This document shows positions 1,509 through 29,612 of a stretch of 37,673 bases of DNA, in pieces. The stretch's first letter is position 1. Each line of letters opens with the position of its first letter. This DNA comes from Oscillibacter sp. MSJ-31 (GTDB taxonomy: Bacteria > Actinomycetota > Coriobacteriia > Coriobacteriales > QAMH01): contig CAVFDV010000003.1 in the NCBI GenBank assembly GCA_963621315.1, forward strand, positions 1 to 37,673, in the 5' to 3' direction. The translations under genes were made by a program, and so were the position numbers. The notes under the pieces are model-generated. The model worked only from the letters and a program-made list of their open reading frames with translations, was not told the DNA's origin and ran no database searches.

Positions 1509-3977
1509 CTAGCATGCTTTCCCGCGCCGCCGGAAAAGCAACGCCCAGGCAAACGCGGCGGCGACGAGGGCGGCGCCTGCGGCGGTGAACGCGATGGTGC
1601 CCGTGCCGCCGGCAAGCGGCATGACCCATTCCTTGTAGTTGGCCACGGAATAGGCGCCTGTCGCGGCGTCTTTCTTGAAGGCCGGCGGCAAATCGCCCAC
1701 GACGGAGCCGGAGGCGTCTTTTTGCGCGTGTGCGACGATCTCGACGGTCTGCGTCGCGGAGTCGGCAGCCACCAGCCATTGCCCGTGCGGCAGACGGTAG
1801 CCCGCAGGCGCAGCCGTCTCGACCAGCATGTACTGCCCCGTTTCCAGCTCGCCGAAATCCGCCTTGCCATCCGCTTGCGTGGTGACGGTGGCAAGGGGAG
1901 CATCCACGTCCCAGCAGCAGCCCGCATCGTTTGAGGCCGTCCAGGAGTGGTCCGCCGCGCTCGTGTGCGCAAGGTCGGCGCATGCATAAAGGGCAAATGT
2001 CGCACCCGCCAGCGCCGTCGAAGCGTCTTCTCCCGTCTTCGTGAACGAGAAGGAGACGGTGGGCGATTTCTCGTTTGCCAGCTTGTAGCCGCTTGCATAT
2101 TCCCCGTCGAAATCCGCCGCCCCGTCGCCGTCCGGGGTCACGGTCACAACGCCGGCGTCCGCATCGACCGCAACCGTCCAGGTGTTTTCCGCCTTCACAT
2201 AGCCTCTGGGCGCGGCAGTCTCGGTCAGCGTGTAGCTGCCGTGGTAGAGCTGCCCGAAATCCACGAGGCCTGCCGCTGCGGAGGTCGCGTTTTTATCCAC
2301 GGCCACAGCCTCAGCAACGCCCGAGACGCCTTTCAAGTTGAATATCGCGCCCGCCAGCACCGTGGCCGCGCTTTCCGCATCCACCTTGGTGAAGGAAAAC
2401 GGCGCCGTCTTCGGCGTGTTTGCCAGCTTGAAGCCCTCCGTATAGCTGCCGTTGAACCCCGCATCGCCGCCTGCAGGCGTCACGACGACGTTCTTGCCCG
2501 ACGAGGTGGAGGTGACCGTGACCGTCCACGGGCCGCCGCTTGCCGCATATCCGCCAGGCGCCGAATTCTCCGTCAAGGTGTAGGTGCCCGCCTCCAAATT
2601 GCCGAAATCCACCTTGCCGTCTGTGCCGGATGTGGCCGTCCCGACGGTTGTCTCGCCGTTTTTCAGCGTGAAAGCCGCTCCCGCGAGGGCGCCGCCGGCC
2701 GAATCGGTCTTTGTGAACGAGAACGGCACGGTCGGGTAGTTCGCGAGCTTGTAGCTGCCCACTCCGGTCCCCGAGAAGTTCACCGAGCCGGATGCCGTGC
2801 TCACGCTCGCGCTCCATGTAGGCGGCACGACGGTGTCGGCGCTCGCCGTCACCGTGACCGTCCACGAGCCGGCCAGACGCGCGTATCCGCTTGCCGCAGA
2901 TGTTTCCGTCAGGGTGTAGGTCCCCGCCCCGAGGATGCCGAAATTCACCAAGCCGTTCGCATCCGAGGTCGCCGTCCCCACGACGTTCGTCCCCTGCTTC
3001 AGTTGAAACGTCGCACCGGCCAACGCCGCGCCCGATTCGTTTGTCTTGGTGAAATAGAAACTTCGGTTCAAGGTCACCGTATCGCCGTTTCCCATCTCCA
3101 GCAGGGTGTCGGTGGCCGTGGTGAAGGTATACGAGGCTCCCGAATACAAGGCTATGACGGAATTGGTCCACGCTTCCGCCACGTCGGTCGTCGTCGCGGT
3201 TTTCACGTAATATTCGGCATGGTACGTGTCATACACCCTCTCGGTCAGGTTCTTGCCATATGCCACCGCCTGCAGGGGGTCTGTGCCCTTCGACCCCATG
3301 GCCGGATCCACCTTCTCTTGGGCTGCGCCCTTCTTGTACGTCATGCAAAAGAAGTAGAGATTCGACTTCAAGCCGGACACGGCCGTGCTCGTGCCGTTGT
3401 AGGTGTAGGAGAATTTCCACCTCACGTCGCCGGTGGACTCGAGCGCCGTCCTGTTCTTGTTGAAAAACTTCGACACCCTGGCGACCTTGTTGCTGGCCGT
3501 GGTGGTGTCGCCGAATGCGTAGACGGTGATTGTCAGATCGACGCTTTTCCCGTTGTACCACCCCACGTTGGTGAACTTCACCCATGCGTTCTTGTTCTTC
3601 GCCCAATTAGGCCCCGTGATCGTCCAAGCCGCCGTGCTTCCATTGTTCAGGCAGGCGGTCAGGTTTCCCGCGGTCCACCCCGACTGGGTCGTCACGCTGG
3701 TGCCCGACCCATTCCACTTGGGGGAAAACCCATACGCCTGCGATATCTTGAAGTTGTTCTTGGCGCTGATTTTGTACCTGCTGGAGGTAAGGGCCGCCTG
3801 GCTTTGGTGGTCGCCGGTAAGCGACAGCACTCCAAACACCCCGCCCAGCGAAACCGCCAGGGCGAGCACTACCACTGCCGCACGTCGAAAGCGGCGCCGC
3901 GTGCCTGCGCCGCGCGAAAACGCGAAACAGCGTTTGGGCGAATCCGCACGGCGCGGCGCACGGGGAGAAGCGTTCAC
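1509..3977 (-). CDS. Sortase-anchored surface adhesin with four SpaA/Cna-B-like repeats
   Basis: The ORF ends at TAG 1509. It has four repeats of the pattern SFTKTD..AL.GA.F.L....TATS..G...FG.L..GTYTLTE...P.GY. The N-terminus has an Arg-rich n-region plus hydrophobic helix (RRRFRRAAVVVLALAV). The C-terminus has MPLAGG, then a hydrophobic helix, then an RRRGK tail. I take GTG 3977 as the start (GGAGG 7 nt upstream); the ORF-track start GTG 4007 is the alternative. Confidence 0.85.
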   Translation of the reverse strand: MNASPRAPRRADSPKRCFAFSRGAGTRRRFRRAAVVVLALAVSLGGVFGVLSLTGDHQSQAALTSSRYKISAKNNFKISQAYGFSPKWNGSGTSVTTQSGWTAGNLTACLNNGSTAAWTITGPNWAKNKNAWVKFTNVGWYNGKSVDLTITVYAFGDTTTASNKVARVSKFFNKNRTALESTGDVRWKFSYTYNGTSTAVSGLKSNLYFFCMTYKKGAAQEKVDPAMGSKGTDPLQAVAYGKNLTERVYDTYHAEYYVKTATTTDVAEAWTNSVIALYSGASYTFTTATDTLLEMGNGDTVTLNRSFYFTKTNESGAALAGATFQLKQGTNVVGTATSDANGLVNFGILGAGTYTLTETSAASGYARLAGSWTVTVTASADTVVPPTWSASVSTASGSVNFSGTGVGSYKLANYPTVPFSFTKTDSAGGALAGAAFTLKNGETTVGTATSGTDGKVDFGNLEAGTYTLTENSAPGGYAASGGPWTVTVTSTSSGKNVVVTPAGGDAGFNGSYTEGFKLANTPKTAPFSFTKVDAESAATVLAGAIFNLKGVSGVAEAVAVDKNATSAAAGLVDFGQLYHGSYTLTETAAPRGYVKAENTWTVAVDADAGVVTVTPDGDGAADFDGEYASGYKLANEKSPTVSFSFTKTGEDASTALAGATFALYACADLAHTSAADHSWTASNDAGCCWDVDAPLATVTTQADGKADFGELETGQYMLVETAAPAGYRLPHGQWLVAADSATQTVEIVAHAQKDASGSVVGDLPPAFKKDAATGAYSVANYKEWVMPLAGGTGTIAFTAAGAALVAAAFAWALLFRRRGKAC
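1758..3062 (-). repeat. Four tandem SpaA-like domain-encoding repeats inside the adhesin gene
   Basis: Protein repeats start near aa 316, 428, 536 and 652 of the 832-aa ORF-track translation, with recurring FTKT/LAGA/GTYTLTE/GY motifs. Confidence 0.7.
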
Positions 3978-4096
3978 CGAGCCGCCTCCGCCTTGGAGGC
4001 GCGACACGGGAAAGCGGCTATGAAGCCCCCCCCCCCCCTCAGATTCTTCTCCATGCGCTGCATCGCGGCGTTCCCCCTCTTCATCACGTTTGCCAT
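3974..4096 (-). other. 40-codon upstream ORF that contains the poly-G tract; its stop overlaps the adhesin GTG
   Basis: Translation is MANVMKRGNAAMQRMEKNLRGGGGFIAAFPCRASKAEAAR. The frame opens after TAA 4120-4118. TGA 3976-3974 overlaps GTG 3977-3975. Whether it is translated is unknown. Confidence 0.25.
4026..4038 (-). repeat. Homopolymer: G13 on the coding strand (C13 on plus) upstream of the adhesin
   Basis: Counted directly: 5 C at 4026-4030 plus 8 C at 4031-4038. Confidence 0.95.
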
Positions 4097-6019: not shown

Positions 6020-6433
6020 CTACTTGACGATCAAGACCGGGCACTTCGCGTGCTTGATGACCTTGTGGCTGACGCTGCCGAGGGCAAACTCCTGCAGCGC
6101 GTTCAAGCCGCGGCTGCCGATGACCATGAGGTCGGCGCCGGAGCTTTCGAGATAGCGGATGATCTCGTCGGCGGGGCGGCCGTGCATGAGGACGACCTCG
6201 GGGTCGATGCCCTCGTCCTTCAGCGTGCGCACCGCCGGGTCCAGCAGCTCGCGCTGCGAATCGCCGTGGGCCTCGATGGGGTCGTAGACCATGTCGGAGT
6301 AGACGTCGATGGCTATGACGGAGAGGAGGTCAACCTGCACGCCGTCGCAGGCCTTCGCGATGTCGGCCGCCTGCGCGAGCGCGCGCATGGAGTTGTCGGA
6401 GCCGTCGATGGCGACGACGATATGCTTGTACAT
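6020..6433 (-). CDS. Universal stress protein (UspA family)
   Basis: 137 aa from ATG 6433, with GGAGG upstream. Starts MYKHIVVAIDGSDNS and ends ..GSRGLNALQEFALGSVSHKVIKHAKCPVLIVK. The longer ORF-track version runs into the hexamer repeat. Confidence 0.9.
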   Translation of the reverse strand: MYKHIVVAIDGSDNSMRALAQAADIAKACDGVQVDLLSVIAIDVYSDMVYDPIEAHGDSQRELLDPAVRTLKDEGIDPEVVLMHGRPADEIIRYLESSGADLMVIGSRGLNALQEFALGSVSHKVIKHAKCPVLIVK

Positions 6434-6470
6434 GAAAAACCTCCGTCTACGGAATCTCGCTTGCCCGTCC

Positions 6471-6476
6471 ATTGTA
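6471..6476 (-). promoter_or_regulatory. Candidate -10 (TACAAT) for the usp-receiver-ackA operon
   Basis: The minus strand reads GGGCTACAATGGACG about 35 nt upstream of ATG 6433. It shares the TAnAATGG pattern seen at other candidate promoters in this window. Confidence 0.4.
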
Positions 6477-6574
6477 GCCCGAATCGCGCGGGGCATCTGC
6501 CGCGAGTTGCGGGGTGATGCGGCGCGGGGGCGGGATGCGGGAAAAGGCGCGGGCCGCGCGGAGAAAGGCGCAGG

Positions 6575-6622
6575 GTGCGGGTGCGGGTGCGGGTGCGGGT
6601 GCGGGTGCGGGTGCGGGTGCGG
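6575..6622 (+). repeat. (GTGCGG)8 hexanucleotide microsatellite; nine G3 tracts with 3-nt loops across 6573-6624
   Basis: Eight perfect tandem units counted directly. Intergenic, between divergent genes. Confidence 0.95.
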
Positions 6623-6665
6623 GGCTGTGGGACTACAGGGTATCCGCCGCGCCGCAAGCCGAAGC

Positions 6666-6694
6666 TTGCTTTTCCCACATACAAGACATACTCT
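6666..6694 (+). promoter_or_regulatory. Candidate sigma-70-type promoter TTGCTT-N17-TACTCT for the ABC ATPase operon
   Basis: -35 at 6666-6671, exactly 17 nt of spacer, -10 at 6689-6694. About 120 nt upstream of ATG 6814. Confidence 0.4.
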
Positions 6695-6813
6695 CACATC
6701 CACTTGCCGCGCATAGGCTCCGGGGAAGCAGGCGGGAAAAGGCCTCGGGCGAAACGCAGGCGAAGATGCAGGTGAAAGCGCACGGCCGGGCACGTGGCGA
6801 AGGGAGGCGCAAG

Positions 6814-7722
6814 ATGCCGTCCATATCGTTTAGGGACGTGGGCTTCGTCTACGAAGACGGCGACGAGGCCTACCGCGCCCTCGAACACGTCGACCTCGAG
6901 ATAGGCGACGGCGAGCTCGTCTGCCTCGTGGGGCATTCGGGCTGCGGCAAATCCACCCTGCTCAGGCTGCTGGCAGGCCTTGCCGTGCCTACGGAGGGCA
7001 CGATCGAGATAGACGGGCGCCGGGTGCAAGGGCCAGGCCCGGACCGCTCGATCGTCTTCCAGAACTACTCGCTGTTCCCCTGGCAGACGGCGCTGAAAAA
7101 CGTCGAATTCGCCTTGCGTAAAACACATGGGGACATGCCCAAGGCCGAGGCGCGCGCAAAGGCGCTGGACTTGCTTGCGCAGGTGAAGATGGAAGAAGCG
7201 GCCAAGCGCTACCCCTTCCAGCTGTCCGGCGGGATGCGCCAGCGCGTGGCCATCGCGCGCGCCCTGGCGGTGGACGCCCCCGTCATGCTGCTCGACGAGC
7301 CCTTCGGCGCGCTCGACCCGCTCATCCGCGAGCAGCTCCAGACCCTGCTGCTCGAGTTGTGGGACGCGGGCGGAGGCGATGCCGGCAAAACCGGTGCCGC
7401 GGCTTCGGAAAACCGCAGCCTGGACGGTAAAGGCCCAAGCGGGGACGCGCCCGCCGGAGGGGGCGGCGGCAAGAGGCGGCGCACCATCGTCTTTGTCACG
7501 CACGACATCGACGAGGCCGTGCGCCTGGCCAGCCGCATCGTCTTCATGGAGCCCGGGCGCATCGTGGCCGGCTTCACCTTGGACCCGGCCCGCGACCGCA
7601 GCCCAGAAAAGCTCGCCGCCGACGAGGCGACCATGCAGGTGAAACGCGAGGTGCTGGCGCTGTTCGAGGCCAGCTCGCGACACGGCGGCGGCGACACGTA
7701 CACATCCGAGAAAGCGCGCTAG
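6814..7722 (+). CDS. ABC transporter ATP-binding protein (NitT/TauT-like NBD) with a low-complexity insert
   Basis: Walker A GHSGCGKST, Q-loop FQNYSLFPW, signature LSGGMRQR, Walker B VMLLDEPF and H-loop VFVTHD. ATG 6814 has GGGAGG upstream. No permease or binding-protein gene is adjacent. Confidence 0.9.
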   Translation: MPSISFRDVGFVYEDGDEAYRALEHVDLEIGDGELVCLVGHSGCGKSTLLRLLAGLAVPTEGTIEIDGRRVQGPGPDRSIVFQNYSLFPWQTALKNVEFALRKTHGDMPKAEARAKALDLLAQVKMEEAAKRYPFQLSGGMRQRVAIARALAVDAPVMLLDEPFGALDPLIREQLQTLLLELWDAGGGDAGKTGAAASENRSLDGKGPSGDAPAGGGGGKRRRTIVFVTHDIDEAVRLASRIVFMEPGRIVAGFTLDPARDRSPEKLAADEATMQVKREVLALFEASSRHGGGDTYTSEKAR

Positions 7723-7766
7723 GCGCCACGACAAGGGAACTACGGCAAGAGGAAGGGAGTTTCACC

Positions 7767-8507
7767 ATGTCGAGCGGTCTTGCGGTCTGCCTCGTATGCG
7801 GGCAGCCCCTCGAGTACTTCGAGACGGGCAAAGAGGTCGTCTGCCACATATGCGGCAAAGAGGAGGTCGGGCATTCCATCTGCATGGACGGGCACTACGT
7901 GTGCGACGCGTGCCACAGGAGCCAGGGCGTCGACTTCATCTTGGAGCGCTGCGCGGCGTCTGGCTCGAAAAACCCCATCGCCCTCGCGCAAGAACTGATG
8001 GCCGACAAGTCCATCTTCCCCAACGGCCCGGAGCACCATACCCTCGTGGGCGCGTCGCTTCTGTGCGCCTACCGCAACGCGGGCGGCGACATCGACCTGG
8101 ACGCGGCGCTGGCCGAGCTGCGCCGGCGCTCGTTGCAAGTGCCGGGCGGCACCTGCGGTTTCTGGGGCACCTGCGGGGCGGCCACGAGCGCCGGGCAATG
8201 GTGGTCGATTGTGGCGGGCTCGACGCCCATGACACGCGGGCCGTGGGCGCAAACGCAGCGCCTGACCTCGCGCATTCTGGGACGCCTCGCCGACATGGGA
8301 GGCCCGCGCTGCTGCAAGCGCACGGGCTTCACCGCCCTGCTCGAAGGCGCGGCCTTTGCAAAGGAGCTGCACGGCGTCGAGATGGAGCTGCCCGAAAAGA
8401 CGGTCTGCGCCTTTTTCACCCGCAACGCCGAGTGCCTGAAAGGCAAGTGCCCCTACTTTCCCGCCCGCTTGGCAAAAGATGGGAAACAGGCAGGGCTGCT
8501 AGAATGA
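7767..8507 (+). CDS. Cys-rich protein with an N-terminal zinc-ribbon; possibly DUF5714-like (recalled from memory, unverified)
   Basis: Starts CLVCG..(x16)..CHICG..C..GHYVCDACH. Later motifs are PEHHTLVGASLLCAYRN, GGTCGFWGTCGA and RCCKR. GGAAGGGAG lies 8 nt before ATG 7767. Confidence 0.6.
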   Translation: MSSGLAVCLVCGQPLEYFETGKEVVCHICGKEEVGHSICMDGHYVCDACHRSQGVDFILERCAASGSKNPIALAQELMADKSIFPNGPEHHTLVGASLLCAYRNAGGDIDLDAALAELRRRSLQVPGGTCGFWGTCGAATSAGQWWSIVAGSTPMTRGPWAQTQRLTSRILGRLADMGGPRCCKRTGFTALLEGAAFAKELHGVEMELPEKTVCAFFTRNAECLKGKCPYFPARLAKDGKQAGLLE

Positions 8508-8522
8508 GCGCGAACATGAGGC

Positions 8523-8539
8523 GGACGGCACTGCCGTCC
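8523..8539 (+). terminator. GC-rich hairpin without a U-tract, at the junction between the high-GC and low-GC genes
   Basis: GGACGGC-ACT-GCCGTCC (7-bp stem, 3-nt loop), followed by CGAAAAAAC rather than Ts. Confidence 0.3.
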
Positions 8540-8558
8540 CGAAAAAACAGGTGGCCAT

Positions 8559-9617
8559 ATGAACCTCAGCGACAATGCAGCCGAGCTAGCAGGCCGGCTG
8601 CAAGAGATTTGCGGCAGATACGACGGGCAGGAACCGCGCGCCTACAGCGAGGACATCACGCGCCTTGCCGAGACCATCGATTTAATCGGAAGCTCCGCCG
8701 AGGCCGATGCGCTTTTCCGCGAAATACTCCAATGCGACCAAGCGCCCGAGGAGATCCGCTACGCGACCCTCTATCTTGCCTCGGTGTTTCTCAGGCACCG
8801 CGGCGCAATGGACGAACTCGGAAAGCTTTTCGAGGATTTCGGCAGCACGTATCGGGCTCACCCGACTTACCAGCTGATCAACCTCACCTTCCGGGAGGCA
8901 AAAGGCCTTTCAGACCAAACGGAAGCGGCCGCTTACGCCTATCAAGCGCAAGAGCTCGCCAAGCGCAACCCAGACGATGCCGGCGTGCTGCACCTCTATG
9001 CCATCATCGCTTGCGATTGGCAAGAACAGGTGCTCTACTCCGATGAGCTGCTCGACGAAGACGCCATCGATTCAGCGCTCGAAGCCGTGAAGCGGGCGCT
9101 GTCCCTAAGTCCCGGATATGCAAAATTCTACGCCACGAGAGCGCGCCTACACATGCTCAAAGGCGAATGGTCGGCAGCACGGACCGACCTGGGCAACGCC
9201 ATCAAATACGAGAGAAGAGACAACTCCTCCTATGTTGTCAACGTCTCGAACTACCAGTATCTCAAGACCAAGGTCTTGCTCGAGGAAAACAGGCGGCGCG
9301 TCGAGAAAAACGCCGACAGCATCAACGATGAACTCGAGAAGAAGTTGCGCAAAATGGAGGACAGCACCGTCAGCACCATCGAGATGATCAGTTTTTTCGC
9401 AGGAGTGATCAGCCTCGTTGCCTGCAGCGTCTCAATCCTCTCGGGCCAGCCCTTCAACGAGGCCGCGCGCCTCATCATCGTGTTGATGGGCGCTTTGCTC
9501 GAGGCCTTTTCCGCGTTTTCCCTGCTCCTCACCCGGCGCAAGGTCGAGATGCGGCACGTTGTCGTCATTGCTTTGGGGGCCTGCGCCATCGTGGGCGCCC
9601 TTGTGCTGGGAAGGTGA
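8559..9617 (+). CDS. TPR-like / coiled-coil protein with three C-terminal transmembrane helices
   Basis: 352 aa. The first ~230 aa are helical-repeat-like (..AVKRALSLSPGYAKFYATRARLHMLKGEWSAARTDLGNAI..). Then a charged coiled coil (EENRRRVEKNADSINDELEKKLRKMED). Three hydrophobic helices follow (about aa 275-295, 303-324, 333-351). AGGTGG precedes ATG 8559. Confidence 0.7.
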   Translation: MNLSDNAAELAGRLQEICGRYDGQEPRAYSEDITRLAETIDLIGSSAEADALFREILQCDQAPEEIRYATLYLASVFLRHRGAMDELGKLFEDFGSTYRAHPTYQLINLTFREAKGLSDQTEAAAYAYQAQELAKRNPDDAGVLHLYAIIACDWQEQVLYSDELLDEDAIDSALEAVKRALSLSPGYAKFYATRARLHMLKGEWSAARTDLGNAIKYERRDNSSYVVNVSNYQYLKTKVLLEENRRRVEKNADSINDELEKKLRKMEDSTVSTIEMISFFAGVISLVACSVSILSGQPFNEAARLIIVLMGALLEAFSAFSLLLTRRKVEMRHVVVIALGACAIVGALVLGR

Positions 9618-9621
9618 GGGC

Positions 9622-10656
9622 ATGTTCTCTTTCACCGACAGAGGCGCCAGGGTAAACGAGGATTTCGCCCGTACGGGGACAGGACAAGACGGCGCTCCTT
9701 TCGGCGTGCTCCTCGACGGGGCAAGCGATTTATGCGGATTCAAGCTCTTCTCCGATATTTGGGGATCTGATGCGCGTTGGCTCTCGCACACTACGGGCAA
9801 TGCCGCCTGCGCCGAATTGGAGCGGGGCGCATCAATCGAGGACGCGCTCGAGGCCGGCGTAAGCACGGCGCGGCGCGAACTGGAGGAGCGGACCGGACAA
9901 AAAATCGACGACATCGAACCCGATGCCATCCCTTCTGCCACTGTTGCGGTTGCGCGAGCCTTGCCGGCGGTTGTCGAGCTTGCCTGGCTGGGCGACTCCC
10001 CCCTCGTCGTCAAGTTTGCAGATAGCGGACGCGCCGATGCATTCGTCGACAGCCTCAGAGCCGATGCGAAAGAACAGGCCACGCGCACCCATGCAACCGT
10101 AGTCGTGCTTTCCTCGAACGACCTTGCCGCCCTTGACGCGCAGTCCAAGCAGGCCATGGTTGAGAGAAGCCGCGGCCAAAACATGTCGGGAGCGGAGAAG
10201 CGCGAGGCGATTTCTGACATCCTCAAGAAAAACAGGCAGATGATCAACAAGCCGGGCGGTTATTGGAACCTCGACCCCACAGGCAAAGGCCTGCCCCATT
10301 TGAACAAGGTCACAGTCGCGCCTGAGGACATCGAGGCGATAGCCGCTTTTTCCGATGGCTTCTATGCGGCGTTCGAGACGTACAAGATAACGGAACTGGA
10401 CGCCTTTCTCGCGTCGGCAACCGAAGCAGACAGCGCGGGCAAAGCCGACGCAAGACATTGCGCAAGCGAGGCAGGCTGCACAAACCCAATGGGCGAGACA
10501 TGCGCCACGGCGTTACTCGAGCAAATCCGGGCCGTTGAAGGCGCCGACCCCGATTTCAACCGTTTCACACGCTTCAAAATCAGCGACGACGCCTCCATGT
10601 TCCTGCTTTCCCGCGCAGATATCGACCGGGGTGCCGCGAGCCGACAAGTTTCCTGA
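9622..10656 (+). CDS. PP2C-family (PP2C_2-like) phosphatase domain protein
   Basis: Ordered motifs VNED, LLDGASD, WLGDSP, FSDGF and ISDDAS match the metal-binding Asp motifs of PP2C-type phosphatases. ATG 9622 lies 4 nt after the upstream TGA. Confidence 0.6.
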   Translation: MFSFTDRGARVNEDFARTGTGQDGAPFGVLLDGASDLCGFKLFSDIWGSDARWLSHTTGNAACAELERGASIEDALEAGVSTARRELEERTGQKIDDIEPDAIPSATVAVARALPAVVELAWLGDSPLVVKFADSGRADAFVDSLRADAKEQATRTHATVVVLSSNDLAALDAQSKQAMVERSRGQNMSGAEKREAISDILKKNRQMINKPGGYWNLDPTGKGLPHLNKVTVAPEDIEAIAAFSDGFYAAFETYKITELDAFLASATEADSAGKADARHCASEAGCTNPMGETCATALLEQIRAVEGADPDFNRFTRFKISDDASMFLLSRADIDRGAASRQVS

Positions 10657-10789
10657 GGCCCGCACGACGGGCGCAGCGCATCGCCGGCCGTCGGAGAAAG
10701 ACCCGGGCAGCGAAATCCAAACTTGGAAGACCTGCGCGCCCCTAGAAGCTGCGGGGTGCCGAGCCGGCGCGCAAGCCCGGGCCTGCCTT

Positions 10790-12178
10790 CTAGCCTATGC
10801 CCAGGTAGGGCAAGAGGTTCGTGACGAGGATGATCAACACGAGCACGGGCGCCACGTACTTGATCATGAACGCCCACGCGCCGGCCGCCCCGAAGGTCGA
10901 GGACTGGCGGATCTCGTCGATGATGGCCTTCGGCTTGATGATGAAGCCGACGAAGATGCACGTGCAGATGGCCACGATAGGCATGAGCACCGAGTTCGAG
11001 ATGAAGTCGAAGAAGTCGAGCAACGTCGAGCCTTCGCCCAGCGGCTGGATGAACGAAAGGCCGCTGTAGCCCGCGTTGATCACGATGCCGCAGACCACGA
11101 GAAACGCCGTGAAGACGCCGAGCGACTTCTTGCGCGACCAGCTCGTCGCGTCCTGGATGTTGGAGACGCATGCCTCGGTCAGGCTGATCGCGCTGGTCAG
11201 GGCCGCGAAGAGCACGAGCAAGAAGAAGACGAAGCCCACGATCTGGCCCGCAAAGCCCATGTCGGAGAAGACCTGCGGCAAGGTGACGAACATGAGCGAC
11301 GGGCCTGCCTTGGCCGCCACCGCATCAGCCGAGCCCAGCGCGATGAAGGCGCCCGGCACGATCATGATGCCCGCGAGGAAGCTGACGATGAAGTCGAAGC
11401 TGACGATGCGCGCGGCGCTCGTGGGCAGGTTGTCCTTTTTATCCACGTACGAGCCGTAGGTGATCATGATGGCCATGGCCAGCGAGAGGCTGTAGAACAT
11501 CTGCCCCAGCGCGTTGATGACCAGCTCCGGGCTGAACTTCGAGAAGTCGGGGAGGAGATAGTAGGCCACGCCGTCCATCGCGCCCGGCTGCACGACGGTG
11601 AAGATGGCGATGGCGAGCGCCATGACGATGAGGGCGGGCATCATCACGAAGTTGGCCTTCTCGATGCCGTTTTTCACCCCGAGGGCCACGACGCCGACGG
11701 TGATGGCCATGAAGACGAGCATGAAGACCTGGCTGGCCACGGGCGAGGTGATGAAGCCGGTGAAGAAGGTGCCGGCCTCGCCGCCCACGTCCGCAATGCT
11801 GGCCGCCGAGTTCGTGACGTAGGCCGTCAGGTACTTCGTGACCCAGCCGCCGATGATGCAATAGTACGGCGTGATAATGAAGGGCACGGCCACCGCCAGA
11901 AAGCCGATGGGCGCATAGCGTTTGCCGTAGGAGCGAAACGCGCTGAAGACCGACAGGCGCGTCTTGCGCCCGAAGGCGATCTCGAGCAGAAGCAGGCTCA
12001 GGCCGAAGGTGAAGACGAGCACGAAGTAGGTGAGCAGGAAGGTGCCGCCGCCGTACTTCGCCGCCAGATAGGGAAAGCGCCAGAGGTTGCCCAGCCCGAC
12101 CGCCGATGCGGCAGCCGAGAGGATGAAGGCCCACTTGCCGGACCATTTCGCGCGCTGCGGTGCTTCTTGTGTTGCCAT
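10790..12178 (-). CDS. Sodium-dependent transporter, SNF (neurotransmitter:sodium symporter) family
   Basis: Motif SAAASAVGLGNLWRFPYLAAKYGGGTFLL and about 11-12 hydrophobic segments. GAGGAG lies 7 nt before ATG 12178. Confidence 0.92.
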   Translation of the reverse strand: MATQEAPQRAKWSGKWAFILSAAASAVGLGNLWRFPYLAAKYGGGTFLLTYFVLVFTFGLSLLLLEIAFGRKTRLSVFSAFRSYGKRYAPIGFLAVAVPFIITPYYCIIGGWVTKYLTAYVTNSAASIADVGGEAGTFFTGFITSPVASQVFMLVFMAITVGVVALGVKNGIEKANFVMMPALIVMALAIAIFTVVQPGAMDGVAYYLLPDFSKFSPELVINALGQMFYSLSLAMAIMITYGSYVDKKDNLPTSAARIVSFDFIVSFLAGIMIVPGAFIALGSADAVAAKAGPSLMFVTLPQVFSDMGFAGQIVGFVFFLLVLFAALTSAISLTEACVSNIQDATSWSRKKSLGVFTAFLVVCGIVINAGYSGLSFIQPLGEGSTLLDFFDFISNSVLMPIVAICTCIFVGFIIKPKAIIDEIRQSSTFGAAGAWAFMIKYVAPVLVLIILVTNLLPYLGIG

Positions 12179-21421: not shown

Positions 21422-21518
21422 GGGCGCGCGCATAGGCATGTCCGCAGCACGCGGGCAGGTCGGCGCGGCCGCGTTTTGGCGGCATGGCGCGCGCAGCGGC
21501 GCGTGGCAGAAACGGCGT

Positions 21519-21595
21519 GTCCCCTTAGCTCAGCTGGATAGAGCGTCTGCCTCCGGAGCAGAAGGCCGCAGGTTCGAATCCTGTAGGGGGCACCA
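21519..21595 (+). tRNA. tRNA-Arg (anticodon CCG), CCA encoded
   Basis: Folded by hand. Acceptor GTCCCCT/AGGGGGC, D stem GCTC/GAGC, anticodon stem TCTGC/GCAGA with loop CT-CCG-GA, T arm GCAGG-TTCGAAT-CCTGT, discriminator A, then CCA. Confidence 0.92.
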
Positions 21596-21679
21596 CATTT
21601 TTGCAGGTCAGACAGTATAAACTCAAATCAAGACAATCCAAGAGAGTTGAATTCGTTACACAACTTAATGTGGCCCGCT

Positions 21680-21834
21680 TGAACCGGACACGGTTTTGAC
21701 AACCGGAAGTGAACCCGCACAATGTGCCCGGAGAGGCGCGGAAAGCGAGGCCCGACATGCCCAAAGGAAAGCCGTACCCGCCCGAGTTCAAGGCGAAGAC
21801 AATCCTGGGATGGAGGGCAAGTTCTAGACGCTGA
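21680..21834 (+). mobile_element. Truncated IS3-family remnant (putative left end plus the first 25 codons of orfA)
   Basis: The ORF MPKGKPYPPEFKAKTILGWRASSRR (21757-21834) resembles the IS3-family OrfA N-terminus (MPK.YP.EF+..AV). A TGAACC.. sequence 77 nt upstream fits the usual TG-initiated IS3 end. The region looks AT-richer by eye. Confidence 0.4.
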
Positions 21835-21859
21835 CACCAACGTTCGCGACACTACCGCT

Positions 21860-22273
21860 CTAGCGCTCCTCCCACCAACGCACGAAATCGCCAGGTCTCA
21901 GGATGGAGACCCCGAGAAACGGGAAATCCTTCAGGTTGTTCGTGACGAGCACGCCGTTTGCGTAGACTGCGGCCTCCAGGAAGGGCTTGTCGTCTATGTC
22001 GGGGTACACGAGGGCGGGGATGTATTTGGGGACAAGCTCTTCGCCGACTTCCTCGACCAGCCTCAGGAGGTCGCGGGCGGGTCGGGCCAATCCGCGCCCC
22101 GTGACGACAGGCCGCGACAGCACGTCTCTGTACTCCACCATCATCTGGGAGCTATAGCATATCGTGAACGCGCCGGGGTTTCCCAAGACGAGGCGCATGC
22201 AGCGCCGGTTTGCGCCGCGGGGGTTCAGCAGCGACGCGAGCAGGACGTTTGTGTCGAAGACGACGTCGACCAT
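21860..22273 (-). CDS. vapC: PIN-domain toxin (VapC-like)
   Basis: Starts VVFDTNVLLASLL (first acidic residue). Later motifs are ..DDKPFLEAAVYANGVLVTNNLKDF. 137 aa, 4 nt downstream of the antitoxin gene. Confidence 0.85.
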   Translation of the reverse strand: MVDVVFDTNVLLASLLNPRGANRRCMRLVLGNPGAFTICYSSQMMVEYRDVLSRPVVTGRGLARPARDLLRLVEEVGEELVPKYIPALVYPDIDDKPFLEAAVYANGVLVTNNLKDFPFLGVSILRPGDFVRWWEER

Positions 22274-28814: not shown

Positions 28815-29092
28815 GTTCTTTATCCCGTTCTACGCAGGCTCTCGACGGGGTGCATGGTACCCCAAAGCGCCCGCCTTGGGCTATACGCGCGCGGGCGTGC
28901 GGCACAGCGCCGCCTATTCACACAATCGGTCTGCATACTCTCGATGCCAAGGCGCATAGTTGCCAGAGCCGACGAAGTAACACACGGGGGCGCGCCGCAG
29001 GACTGTCTCGCAAGCCGAGCTTGTGATACGCGCGAAAATACAAGTTGCGGCAACAGAGACACCGATGGATGCCCCGTTTTCTAAAACCTGGA

Positions 29093-29365
29093 TCAGGCGG
29101 CAGTTTTCGAACGAGCCGCCTTCTCGTGCTGTTCGTCGACCCACTCAACAAGAGCCGTGTTAATCAGCGCCTGACGGGCAATGCCGCGGCGAGACGCTTC
29201 CTTTGCAAGGGAATCGAGCAGCCAAGGAGGCAAAGCAATGCTGACCTGCTCCGCTCCGCATGTGTCCGTAGGACCCATCTGCGGATGCTCGACATCGAAA
29301 TAGTCCAAGACATCTTCACCCGCATCAAATCGGTCGAGTAAATTTTCAGCTGTTGTGACGGTCAT
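29093..29365 (-). CDS. brnA: BrnA-type antitoxin (CopG/RHH C-terminus)
   Basis: 90 aa from ATG 29365. Contains ..VSIALPPWLLDSLAKEASRRGIARQALINTALVEWV. Overlaps the brnT 3' end by 20 nt. Confidence 0.8.
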   Translation of the reverse strand: MTVTTAENLLDRFDAGEDVLDYFDVEHPQMGPTDTCGAEQVSIALPPWLLDSLAKEASRRGIARQALINTALVEWVDEQHEKAARSKTAA

Positions 29366-29612
29366 AGCAGCTCCTTTCCCCCGGTGTCGACAATCTAACA
29401 GATATGAGACACACAGCATCGTCTCGTTGCGTCCAGATTGCGGACCAATACTCGCCATTGACAATGCCGATGGAAAGCTTGCGGTCTTCGCCCTTTCTCC
29501 GCGAGGAAAATGTGACGAGCCGCGCATTCCATATGGCGCAGCCAAAAGACAACGGTACACCATGCTTTTCCTCATTAGCGATACTCTTGTTCTCGTCCCA
29601 TTCGAAACGCAT
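29346..29612 (-). CDS. brnT: BrnT toxin (DUF497 ribonuclease family)
   Basis: The start MRFEWDENKSIANEEKHGVPL is the hallmark F.WD..K...N..KHG. AAGGAG lies 6 nt before ATG 29612. Confidence 0.88.
   Translation of the reverse strand: MRFEWDENKSIANEEKHGVPLSFGCAIWNARLVTFSSRRKGEDRKLSIGIVNGEYWSAIWTQRDDAVCLISVRLSTPGERSCYDRHNS

Follow-up and report, generated by a model that had tools for sequence, protein, structure and literature searches.

A recurrent gene pair of a TPR membrane protein and a PP2C-family phosphatase, with an exchangeable effector domain, as a possible phosphatase-gated abortive-infection module

The stretch of DNA analysed here, referred to as the window (37,673 nt from Oscillibacter sp. 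MSJ-31, contig CAVFDV010000003.1), contains two adjacent plus-strand genes, g1 and g2, at positions 8559 to 10656. The g1 gene (8559–9617, +, taken from the list of open reading frames (ORFs)) encodes a 352-residue protein with a TPR-like region, a coiled coil and three transmembrane (3TM) helices, which is predicted to be a sensor-effector. The g2 gene (9622–10656, +) encodes a 344-residue metal-dependent phosphatase of the PP2C_2 family, the predicted gate or regulator of g1; its start was taken as the ATG within a longer TTG-initiated frame from 9559. A preliminary description, made from the sequence alone, had placed the two genes 4 nt apart, convergent with an SNF transporter gene and with no partner kinase, FHA or vWA gene nearby. 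All three statements hold: the spacing is 4 nt, the SNF gene lies at 10790–12178 on the minus strand, and no kinase, FHA or vWA gene occurs within ~5 kb of the pair. A Shine-Dalgarno-like AGGTGG (8549–8554, +), visible in the sequence itself, precedes the g1 ATG by 4 nt. A second Shine-Dalgarno-like element, AAGGTGAGGG (9611–9620, +), overlaps the g1 stop codon at 9615–9617, and this overlap suggests translational coupling of g1 to g2.

The g1 protein is predicted to be helical throughout. In the AlphaFold2 model obtained from the single sequence (predicted local distance difference test, pLDDT, of 65), residues 1–220 (8559–9218, +) form 11 repeat helices of TPR-like character, predicted to be cytoplasmic. 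Residues 229–268 (9243–9362, +) form a single long charged helix, a putative coiled-coil linker whose length varies in the family alignment, and residues 273–351 (9375–9611, +) form three transmembrane helices, which are placed by the model together with family conservation. Foldseek comparison of the model retrieves TPR proteins (LapB, MamA and designed TPRs) with a best PDB E-value of ~2e-4 and low TM-scores, at a model pLDDT of 65. The Pfam TPR matches of g1 fall just below the cut-offs (best TPR_19, 23.9 bits versus 25), and a TPR_8 match is present in 13 of 46 g1 relatives. The architecture that had been proposed at first, a TPR-like N-terminus followed by a coiled coil and three C-terminal transmembrane helices, agrees with the structure model, and its TPR-like part with the Foldseek comparison.

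The last repeats carry the family signature YAK[FY]Y[CA]T[KR][GA]RL ... AIDxEDSxxxDYxxRIxxYQ. Six positions are near-invariant in the family: Thr193 (94% of representatives), Arg196, Ala214, Glu218, Tyr225 and Tyr232. At a few motif positions of lower conservation, the window g1 and its closest relatives depart from the consensus. Both window ORFs are intact and full length without frameshifts, and the residues that are near-invariant in the family are kept. The first transmembrane helix is the best-conserved region of the g1 family, which argues that the membrane part is more than an anchor. The loop between the first and the second transmembrane helix contains 0.5 Lys+Arg and the loop between the second and the third 2.7; by the positive-inside rule, the N-terminus and the TPR region of g1 are predicted to lie in the cytoplasm, in the same compartment as g2.

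The g2 protein matches PF13672 (PP2C_2) over residues 10–259 with 30.4 bits at a cut-off of 24, and the genome-level profile search likewise scored it at 30 bits against PP2C_2, above the cut-off. Its AlphaFold2 model, built with a 16-sequence alignment, reaches a pLDDT of 85.6 and a predicted TM-score (pTM) of 0.87. Among the top 50 PDB matches listed by Foldseek, nearly all are PPM phosphatases or PPM-fold proteins with a probability of 1.0; E-values within this list go down to 9e-10 and TM-scores up to 0.67 on the target, and the matches include TAP38, ABI1/HAB1, PPM1A, Staphylococcus aureus Stp1 and the pseudophosphatase TAB1. A PDB sequence search with the g2 profile gave no match. The metal-ligand motifs are present as E13-D14, D32-G33, G124-D125 (followed by Ser), D245-G246 and D322-D323, and Asp14, 32, 125, 245, 322 and 323 are invariant in 35 of 35 PP2Cs that partner g1-like genes. 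The confident PPM fold and the complete set of metal-binding Asp residues bear out the earlier assignment of g2 as a PP2C_2 phosphatase with ordered Asp motifs. Because these residues are all present and invariant among the partners, g2 is very probably an active enzyme. In the alignment, the window copy also shows two inserts specific to its lineage and a tail at the C-terminus.

The genome has four Hanks-type kinase genes, on contigs C33, C80, C86 and C199, and a second PP2C_2 gene at C80:6907-7416 lies ~3 kb from one of them. On this evidence, g2 is an extra accessory copy coupled to g1 and not the housekeeping phosphatase.

A word-indexed search with g1 found only g1 itself, which on its own would have pointed wrongly to an orphan gene; an exhaustive phmmer search overturned this picture. 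Against 1.84 billion cluster representatives (clusters at 50% identity), g1 has 1,523 matches at E<=1e-3 and 414 at E<=1e-10. The relatives are almost all 330–390 residues long, align over the full length and are named at their sources merely 'TPR repeat protein' or 'hypothetical'. The four closest relatives share 48%, 38%, 33% and 32% identity with g1, and each is directly followed by a PP2C_2-like gene. Their contexts differ: ThiF/ValRS; patatin, rplM and smpB; PBP/DUF3048; and a contig with a TIR gene.

A wider locus scan used one genome per species and, as query, a 12-sequence subset of the 46-sequence family alignment. It returned 35 loci from Actinomycetota, Bacillota, Bacteroidota, Cyanobacteriota and Mycoplasmatota, with hosts in Cellulomonadaceae, Marinifilum, Haloplasmataceae, Xenococcus (a cyanobacterium), Paenibacillaceae, Erysipelotrichaceae, many rumen Clostridia, Bacteroidaceae and Parabacteroides. 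A g2-like gene lies downstream on the same strand, or is fused, in 33 of the 35; the two exceptions are a locus at a contig end (L058) and a divergent Parabacteroides gene (L068). When the closest relatives, the scan, one more genome of the window's phylum and the locus P0012 are taken together, the distinct loci at which a g1-like gene is followed by an adjacent or fused g2-like PP2C number 38 of 40, spread over at least five phyla. The gaps between the two genes are mostly -30 to +20 nt in the relatives, and most of the genes overlap or nearly abut. The g2 tree and the g1 tree (built on the TPR part) share subclades, and in each of them the pair of the window and that of L031 are sisters (values of 100 for g1 and 96 for g2). 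The 38 loci, the congruent trees and the fusions indicate that the pair recurs elsewhere as a unit. From a first look at its homologues, g2 had seemed to occur mostly on its own beside housekeeping genes, without recurrence of the pair; this view was rejected once the loci of the g1 relatives were inspected, and P0012, first taken for a solo PP2C, was likewise found to be paired.

No conserved third gene was found among 124 neighbour proteins of the related loci. Extra genes occur beside the pairs of some relatives, actinobacterial and other (L073, 3720–4991; an upstream ORF in L078 and L079; L076, 2233–3054 and 4386–5291). They comprise a 423-residue protein without a Pfam match 10 nt upstream of g1, a longer second TPR protein and a separate TIR_2 gene ~2 kb downstream, and may be optional third components.

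The C-terminal part of the g1 family is exchangeable. At 16 loci, the TPR region and coiled coil are followed by a TIR_2 domain (PF13676, E = 4.6e-19 to 2e-16) instead of the three transmembrane helices. The motif S..S..VRxE keeps its catalytic Glu in 15 of 15, and the TIR of the swapped forms is predicted to be catalytically competent. The genes downstream of the TIR forms are PP2C-like with the same Asp motifs, and in two loci (L050 and L063) all parts are joined in a single-chain TPR-TIR_2-PP2C_2 fusion. The TIR forms group together in the tree and could share one origin. The family is mainly of the 3TM form, since 149 of the 150 closest cluster representatives carry the membrane tail and one carries a TIR.

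The pair is sporadic in its distribution. Both g1 and g2 are absent from the 40 related genomes searched (4 of the same genus, 20 of the same family and 16 of the same order), and the Usp-SNF site in which they lie is variable, which excludes a place in the core synteny of the clade. The family occurs in 1 of 41 relatives, in 2 of 401 phylum-wide genomes and in 2 of 301 genomes in the family of the Ruminococcus carrier; its prevalence is at most 1% of genomes, and the chromosomal context is different at each locus. The pair is best described, from these comparisons, as a putative horizontally mobile module.

The insertion site was located by blastn against the congeners. The flanking SNF transporter has 90–98% protein identity in four congeners, and on the other side lies a Usp gene (6020–6448, minus strand). 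Homology to congener G001 ends near 6506 and restarts at 10790; in that genome the site between Usp and SNF is empty and the two genes are ~50 bp apart, and in the congeners G003 and G004 it holds a formate/nitrite transporter gene. The variable segment thus spans 6507–10789 (~4.3 kb, no strand assigned) and contains a remnant of an ABC operon, g1 and g2. Within the genus, the Usp-SNF intergenic site (6450–6510 and 10657–10789; loci L026, L027 and L028) stands out as a hot spot whose cargo varies. The cassette has neither direct nor inverted repeats at its flanks, and none of the nearby genes that were examined was noted as an integrase, transposase or other recombinase.

The 4.3-kb insert is a mosaic of an ABC ATPase gene (6814–7722), a DUF5714 gene (7767–8507), g1 and g2. 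The ATPase and DUF5714 genes have 87–88% DNA identity to part of an intact four-gene operon of G003 (binding protein, ATPase, permease and DUF5714; contig C7), which lies on a contig other than that of the Usp-SNF site. The window remnant has neither the binding-protein nor the permease gene. The genes at 6814–8507 are a deletion derivative of such a four-gene operon, which explains the presence of an orphan ABC ATPase without a permease. Close to its C-terminus, the ATPase carries a low-complexity insert rich in Gly. The DUF5714 protein (Pfam E = 2.9e-60) covers about half of the NCBIfam MbdU model ('metal-binding double selenoprotein') with 173 bits at a cut-off of 600, and is a relative rich in Cys and headed by a zinc ribbon, distinct from the selenoprotein itself. 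A perfect hexanucleotide microsatellite (GGGTGC, ~8 copies, 6573–6620) lies in the intergenic region upstream of the ATPase gene, at the left edge of the variable segment. The neighbours within ~5 kb of the pair are acetate kinase, a receiver-domain gene, Usp, the ABC ATPase, DUF5714, SNF, GlmM and MurJ.

The pair differs in composition from its surroundings. The G+C content is 0.585 in g1 and 0.604 in g2 compared with 0.669 in the whole window, and G+C at third codon positions (GC3) is 0.748 and 0.693 compared with 0.85–0.95 in six flanking genes. Across ~1,070 long ORFs of the 1.8-Mb assembly (median 0.876), g1 ranks at about the 20th and g2 at about the 15th GC3 percentile. The shift is real but moderate; the two genes belong to the lower-GC3 accessory fraction of the genome and are no extreme outliers. 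The preliminary description, which had called the cassette AT-richer with a weaker third-position G/C bias, was therefore right with respect to the flanks. It had also taken a GC-rich hairpin to set the cassette off from the upstream genes. The hairpin does exist after the DUF5714 gene (8523–8539, +; 7-bp stem, 3-nt loop, -12.7 kcal/mol); a role as boundary or terminator was rejected, since it is followed by an A-run and not a U-run, the folding of the region is no better than that of shuffled sequence (z = -0.27) and a terminator scan made no call. Elsewhere in the window, an 831-residue surface protein with four SpaA/prealbumin-fold domains and a Gram-positive pilin D1 domain is encoded at 1509–4007 (minus strand), and its gene covers a G+C dip to 0.57 (3001–3500). 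Further low-G+C spots lie at 21501–22000 and 29001–29500.

As had been supposed from the sequence, the pair corresponds to no named system: neither g1 nor g2 has a match in PADLOC-DB v2.0.0, and no curated name or paper was found. Among the 46 family members, three match LeoBC (best E 1.1e-6) and the other matches are weak (E>=1e-3); none of the 46 matched a PADLOC model of this architecture. The TIR forms match generic TIR models only, and the PP2C part of the L050 fusion gives one weak PDC-M21C match (18.6 bits). This match is the sole connection to the PP2C-containing candidate system of the PADLOC preprint, to which the pair could not be linked. A literature search on PP2C with TIR, TPR, anti-phage, abortive infection and PF13672 retrieved no description of the pair.

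Several known systems share parts of this design. Like CBASS, Pycsar and Thoeris, the pair joins one sensing module to either a multi-helix membrane module or a TIR, and forms a small mobile unit with a patchy distribution. Unlike them, it has no cyclase or other generator of a nucleotide signal and no SAVED, CARF, cNMP or SLOG sensor, and its constant partner is a PP2C phosphatase. Compared with Thoeris in particular, only the TIR of the TIR-form relatives resembles ThsB (PF08937, E = 3e-7), and there is no conserved ThsA-like partner. TerY-P reportedly combines the vWA protein TerY, a PP2C phosphatase and a Ser/Thr kinase in a candidate or validated defence cassette. The pair likewise has a PP2C-type phosphatase in a compact cassette; in contrast to TerY-P, no vWA/TerY or kinase gene lies beside g2 or the relatives examined, and there is no PADLOC TerY-P match. 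Neither Pkinase nor vWA is among the 25 commonest of the 147 Pfam families in the 124 neighbour proteins from 36 related loci. The Stk/Stp (PknB/PstP-type) phosphatases have the same PPM fold and metal-binding motifs as g2, but g2 is not beside a kinase and is absent from the congeners, whereas the kinase-linked PP2C is on C80. The view that the locus is neither a TerY-P triad nor an ordinary Stk/Stp pair is thereby upheld, with the housekeeping kinase and PP2C on another contig.

The partner-switching PP2Cs of the SpoIIE/RsbU type resemble the pair in coupling PP2C activity to a partner domain of membrane or regulatory type. However, the locus has no STAS or anti-sigma partner, the membrane helices of SpoIIE are within the phosphatase itself and here are on the separate TPR protein g1, and g2 matches PP2C_2 with no SpoIIE-family match at E<=1. 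A further counterpart is the defence-related KKP module of Pf prophages, which consists of the kinases PfkA and PfkB and the PF13672 phosphatase PfpC, and in which phage interference with the phosphatase frees a toxic partner (PMC11341870). The likeness lies in the use of a PP2C_2 phosphatase as the restraining, antitoxin-like part, PfpC in KKP and, by our proposal, g2 here. KKP has two Ser/Thr kinases in its operon and resides in a prophage, whereas the pair has neither a kinase nor a prophage context and its partner is a TPR-3TM or TPR-TIR protein. The KKP gene order, a PP2C followed by two Pkinase genes (PfkA with CSD/FHA features), is absent here, and no kinase gene lies beside g2 or its relatives.

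The pair may be a phosphatase-gated sensor-effector of the abortive-infection type, a reading that we favour and to which we give an even chance of being correct. In the scheme that follows, we infer how g1 is switched off and on, where it is phosphorylated, what triggers it and that it serves defence. The g1 protein would be a cytoplasm-facing TPR sensor that is joined by its coiled coil to an effector, the 3TM module here and a TIR in the sister subclade. In the resting cell, g2 would hold g1 off by removing a phosphate that is set by a host Hanks-type kinase, with the near-invariant Thr193 as the candidate phospho-site on g1; g2 might also restrain g1 by direct binding. The module has no kinase of its own, and the phosphate would therefore come from one of the four host Hanks-type kinases or from a phage kinase. 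An infecting phage or some other insult could upset this balance through inhibition or titration of the phosphatase, a kinase surge or a ligand of the TPR region. The freed g1 would oligomerise through the coiled coil and permeabilise the membrane, or deplete NAD+ in the TIR forms, and the outcome would be growth stop or cell death according to the logic of abortive infection. A role in biological conflict is what we infer mainly from the exchange of the 3TM module for TIR in the relatives.

The solo genes bear on this scheme. At least six stand-alone PP2Cs of the g2 clade occur without g1 in the actinobacterial branch of the PP2C tree. Solo PP2Cs of this clade (loci L001–L008, L010, L011 and L081) have ~282 residues, are 33–39% identical to g2 and are found at core positions of Coriobacteriia-like genomes, either between metK and priA-def-fmt-rsmB or beside rpmB and a pair of ABC exporter genes. 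They have neither a g1-like gene nor a g1 remnant at their side, and may have outlived the loss of a g1 partner. The converse case, a g1 that lacks a PP2C, occurred once (L068). Such an asymmetry would be expected of a g2 that keeps a harmful g1 in check.

Some neighbours of the related pairs are of defence type: a FokI-type enzyme next to L069, type II methyltransferases, AriA-like and AbiLi-like proteins, ThsB-like TIR proteins, WYL and, beside one relative, a RelB/YafQ pair; such neighbours are suggestive only of a defence association. Two RyR-domain proteins (PF02026, E = 8e-37) and two TIR-domain proteins were also observed among the neighbours of L035–L069.

Several observations weigh against an abortive-infection role. 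Most loci lie amid housekeeping genes, and only about a tenth of the 124 neighbour proteins match defence models. No relatives of g1 or g2 were found in the IMG/VR viral contigs, the stretch was not found in public sequencing runs, and the lack of a PADLOC match for either protein points in the same direction. The confidence of the g1 model is moderate (pLDDT 65). The phosphorylation step leans on a donor outside the module, which has no kinase. The stable free-standing PP2Cs at core genes indicate that the phosphatase can act independently of g1, and the decayed ABC operon next door may mean that the local copy is under relaxed selection.

In a more specific version of the phosphatase-gated scheme, the family would be a phylum-spanning, phosphorylation-gated abortive-infection system in which the PP2C continuously erases a host-kinase mark on the conserved TPR threonine and thereby keeps watch over how the cell is phosphorylated. 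The effector, a 3TM pore or a TIR NADase, would be set off by any phage that inhibits the phosphatase, supplies a kinase or raises kinase activity; the 3TM form would be ancestral and dominant and the TIR form derived. This version is put forward tentatively and is rather doubtful as a whole.

The most serious alternative is a non-immune membrane signalling or stress module, in which the g1 TPR scaffold recruits the PP2C to the membrane, the PP2C dephosphorylates substrates of Hanks-type kinases such as envelope and division proteins, and the TIR is an interaction or signalling domain. The housekeeping surroundings of most of the 40 loci, the missing phage or viral association and defence-model match, the solo PP2Cs of the same clade beside core genes in Coriobacteriia-like genomes and the Hanks-type kinases of the host are all in keeping with such a module. 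However, a prevalence of at most 1% and a different insertion site at each locus would be unusual for a housekeeping regulator, and this genome already has a canonical kinase-linked PP2C. The exchange of 3TM for TIR with the catalytic Glu intact is typical of effector swapping, and the conservation of the first transmembrane helix is above the needs of an anchor. We consider this alternative unlikely on balance.

A plain addiction module of the toxin-antitoxin kind, in which g1 is a membrane or NADase toxin and g2 its antitoxin, and which is selfish or stabilises DNA without phage sensing, would account for the two coupled genes, for solo PP2Cs that are tolerated and a solo g1 that is almost never seen, and for the patchy distribution of the type left by horizontal gene transfer; one relative also adjoins a RelB/YafQ pair. 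On the other hand, a conserved TPR region of ~220 residues with near-invariant surface motifs exceeds the needs of a toxin and suggests sensing of a ligand or partner, and no plasmid or prophage was met among the loci examined. Toxin-antitoxin and abortive-infection roles can also coexist. The simple addiction module is therefore given a low probability.

Least likely of all, and in our view improbable, is that the pair is an inert passenger in this genome, either newly acquired or a remnant that decays along with the variable region around it. This would fit the loss of the binding-protein and permease genes from the adjacent ABC operon, which a congener has intact, the strain- or species-specific nature of the segment and the two inserts and tail of g2, yet both ORFs are full length without frameshifts, the invariant catalytic and near-invariant family residues are all kept, and the ribosome-binding sites and coupled arrangement are intact.

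If the pair does act as a defence or self-killing switch, it would represent a compact immune architecture in which a TPR sensor is combined with an exchangeable effector, membrane or TIR, and with its own phosphatase but no kinase. The present work ties the 3TM form and the TPR-TIR plus PP2C pairs into one larger family, which is large (hundreds of clusters at 50% identity), occurs in Gram-positive and Gram-negative phyla and carries only generic names in the databases. The family would then offer a clean case for how reversible Ser/Thr phosphorylation gates bacterial cell-suicide effectors, a question for which systems that include a kinase, among them KKP and TerY-P, have so far been the main entry point.

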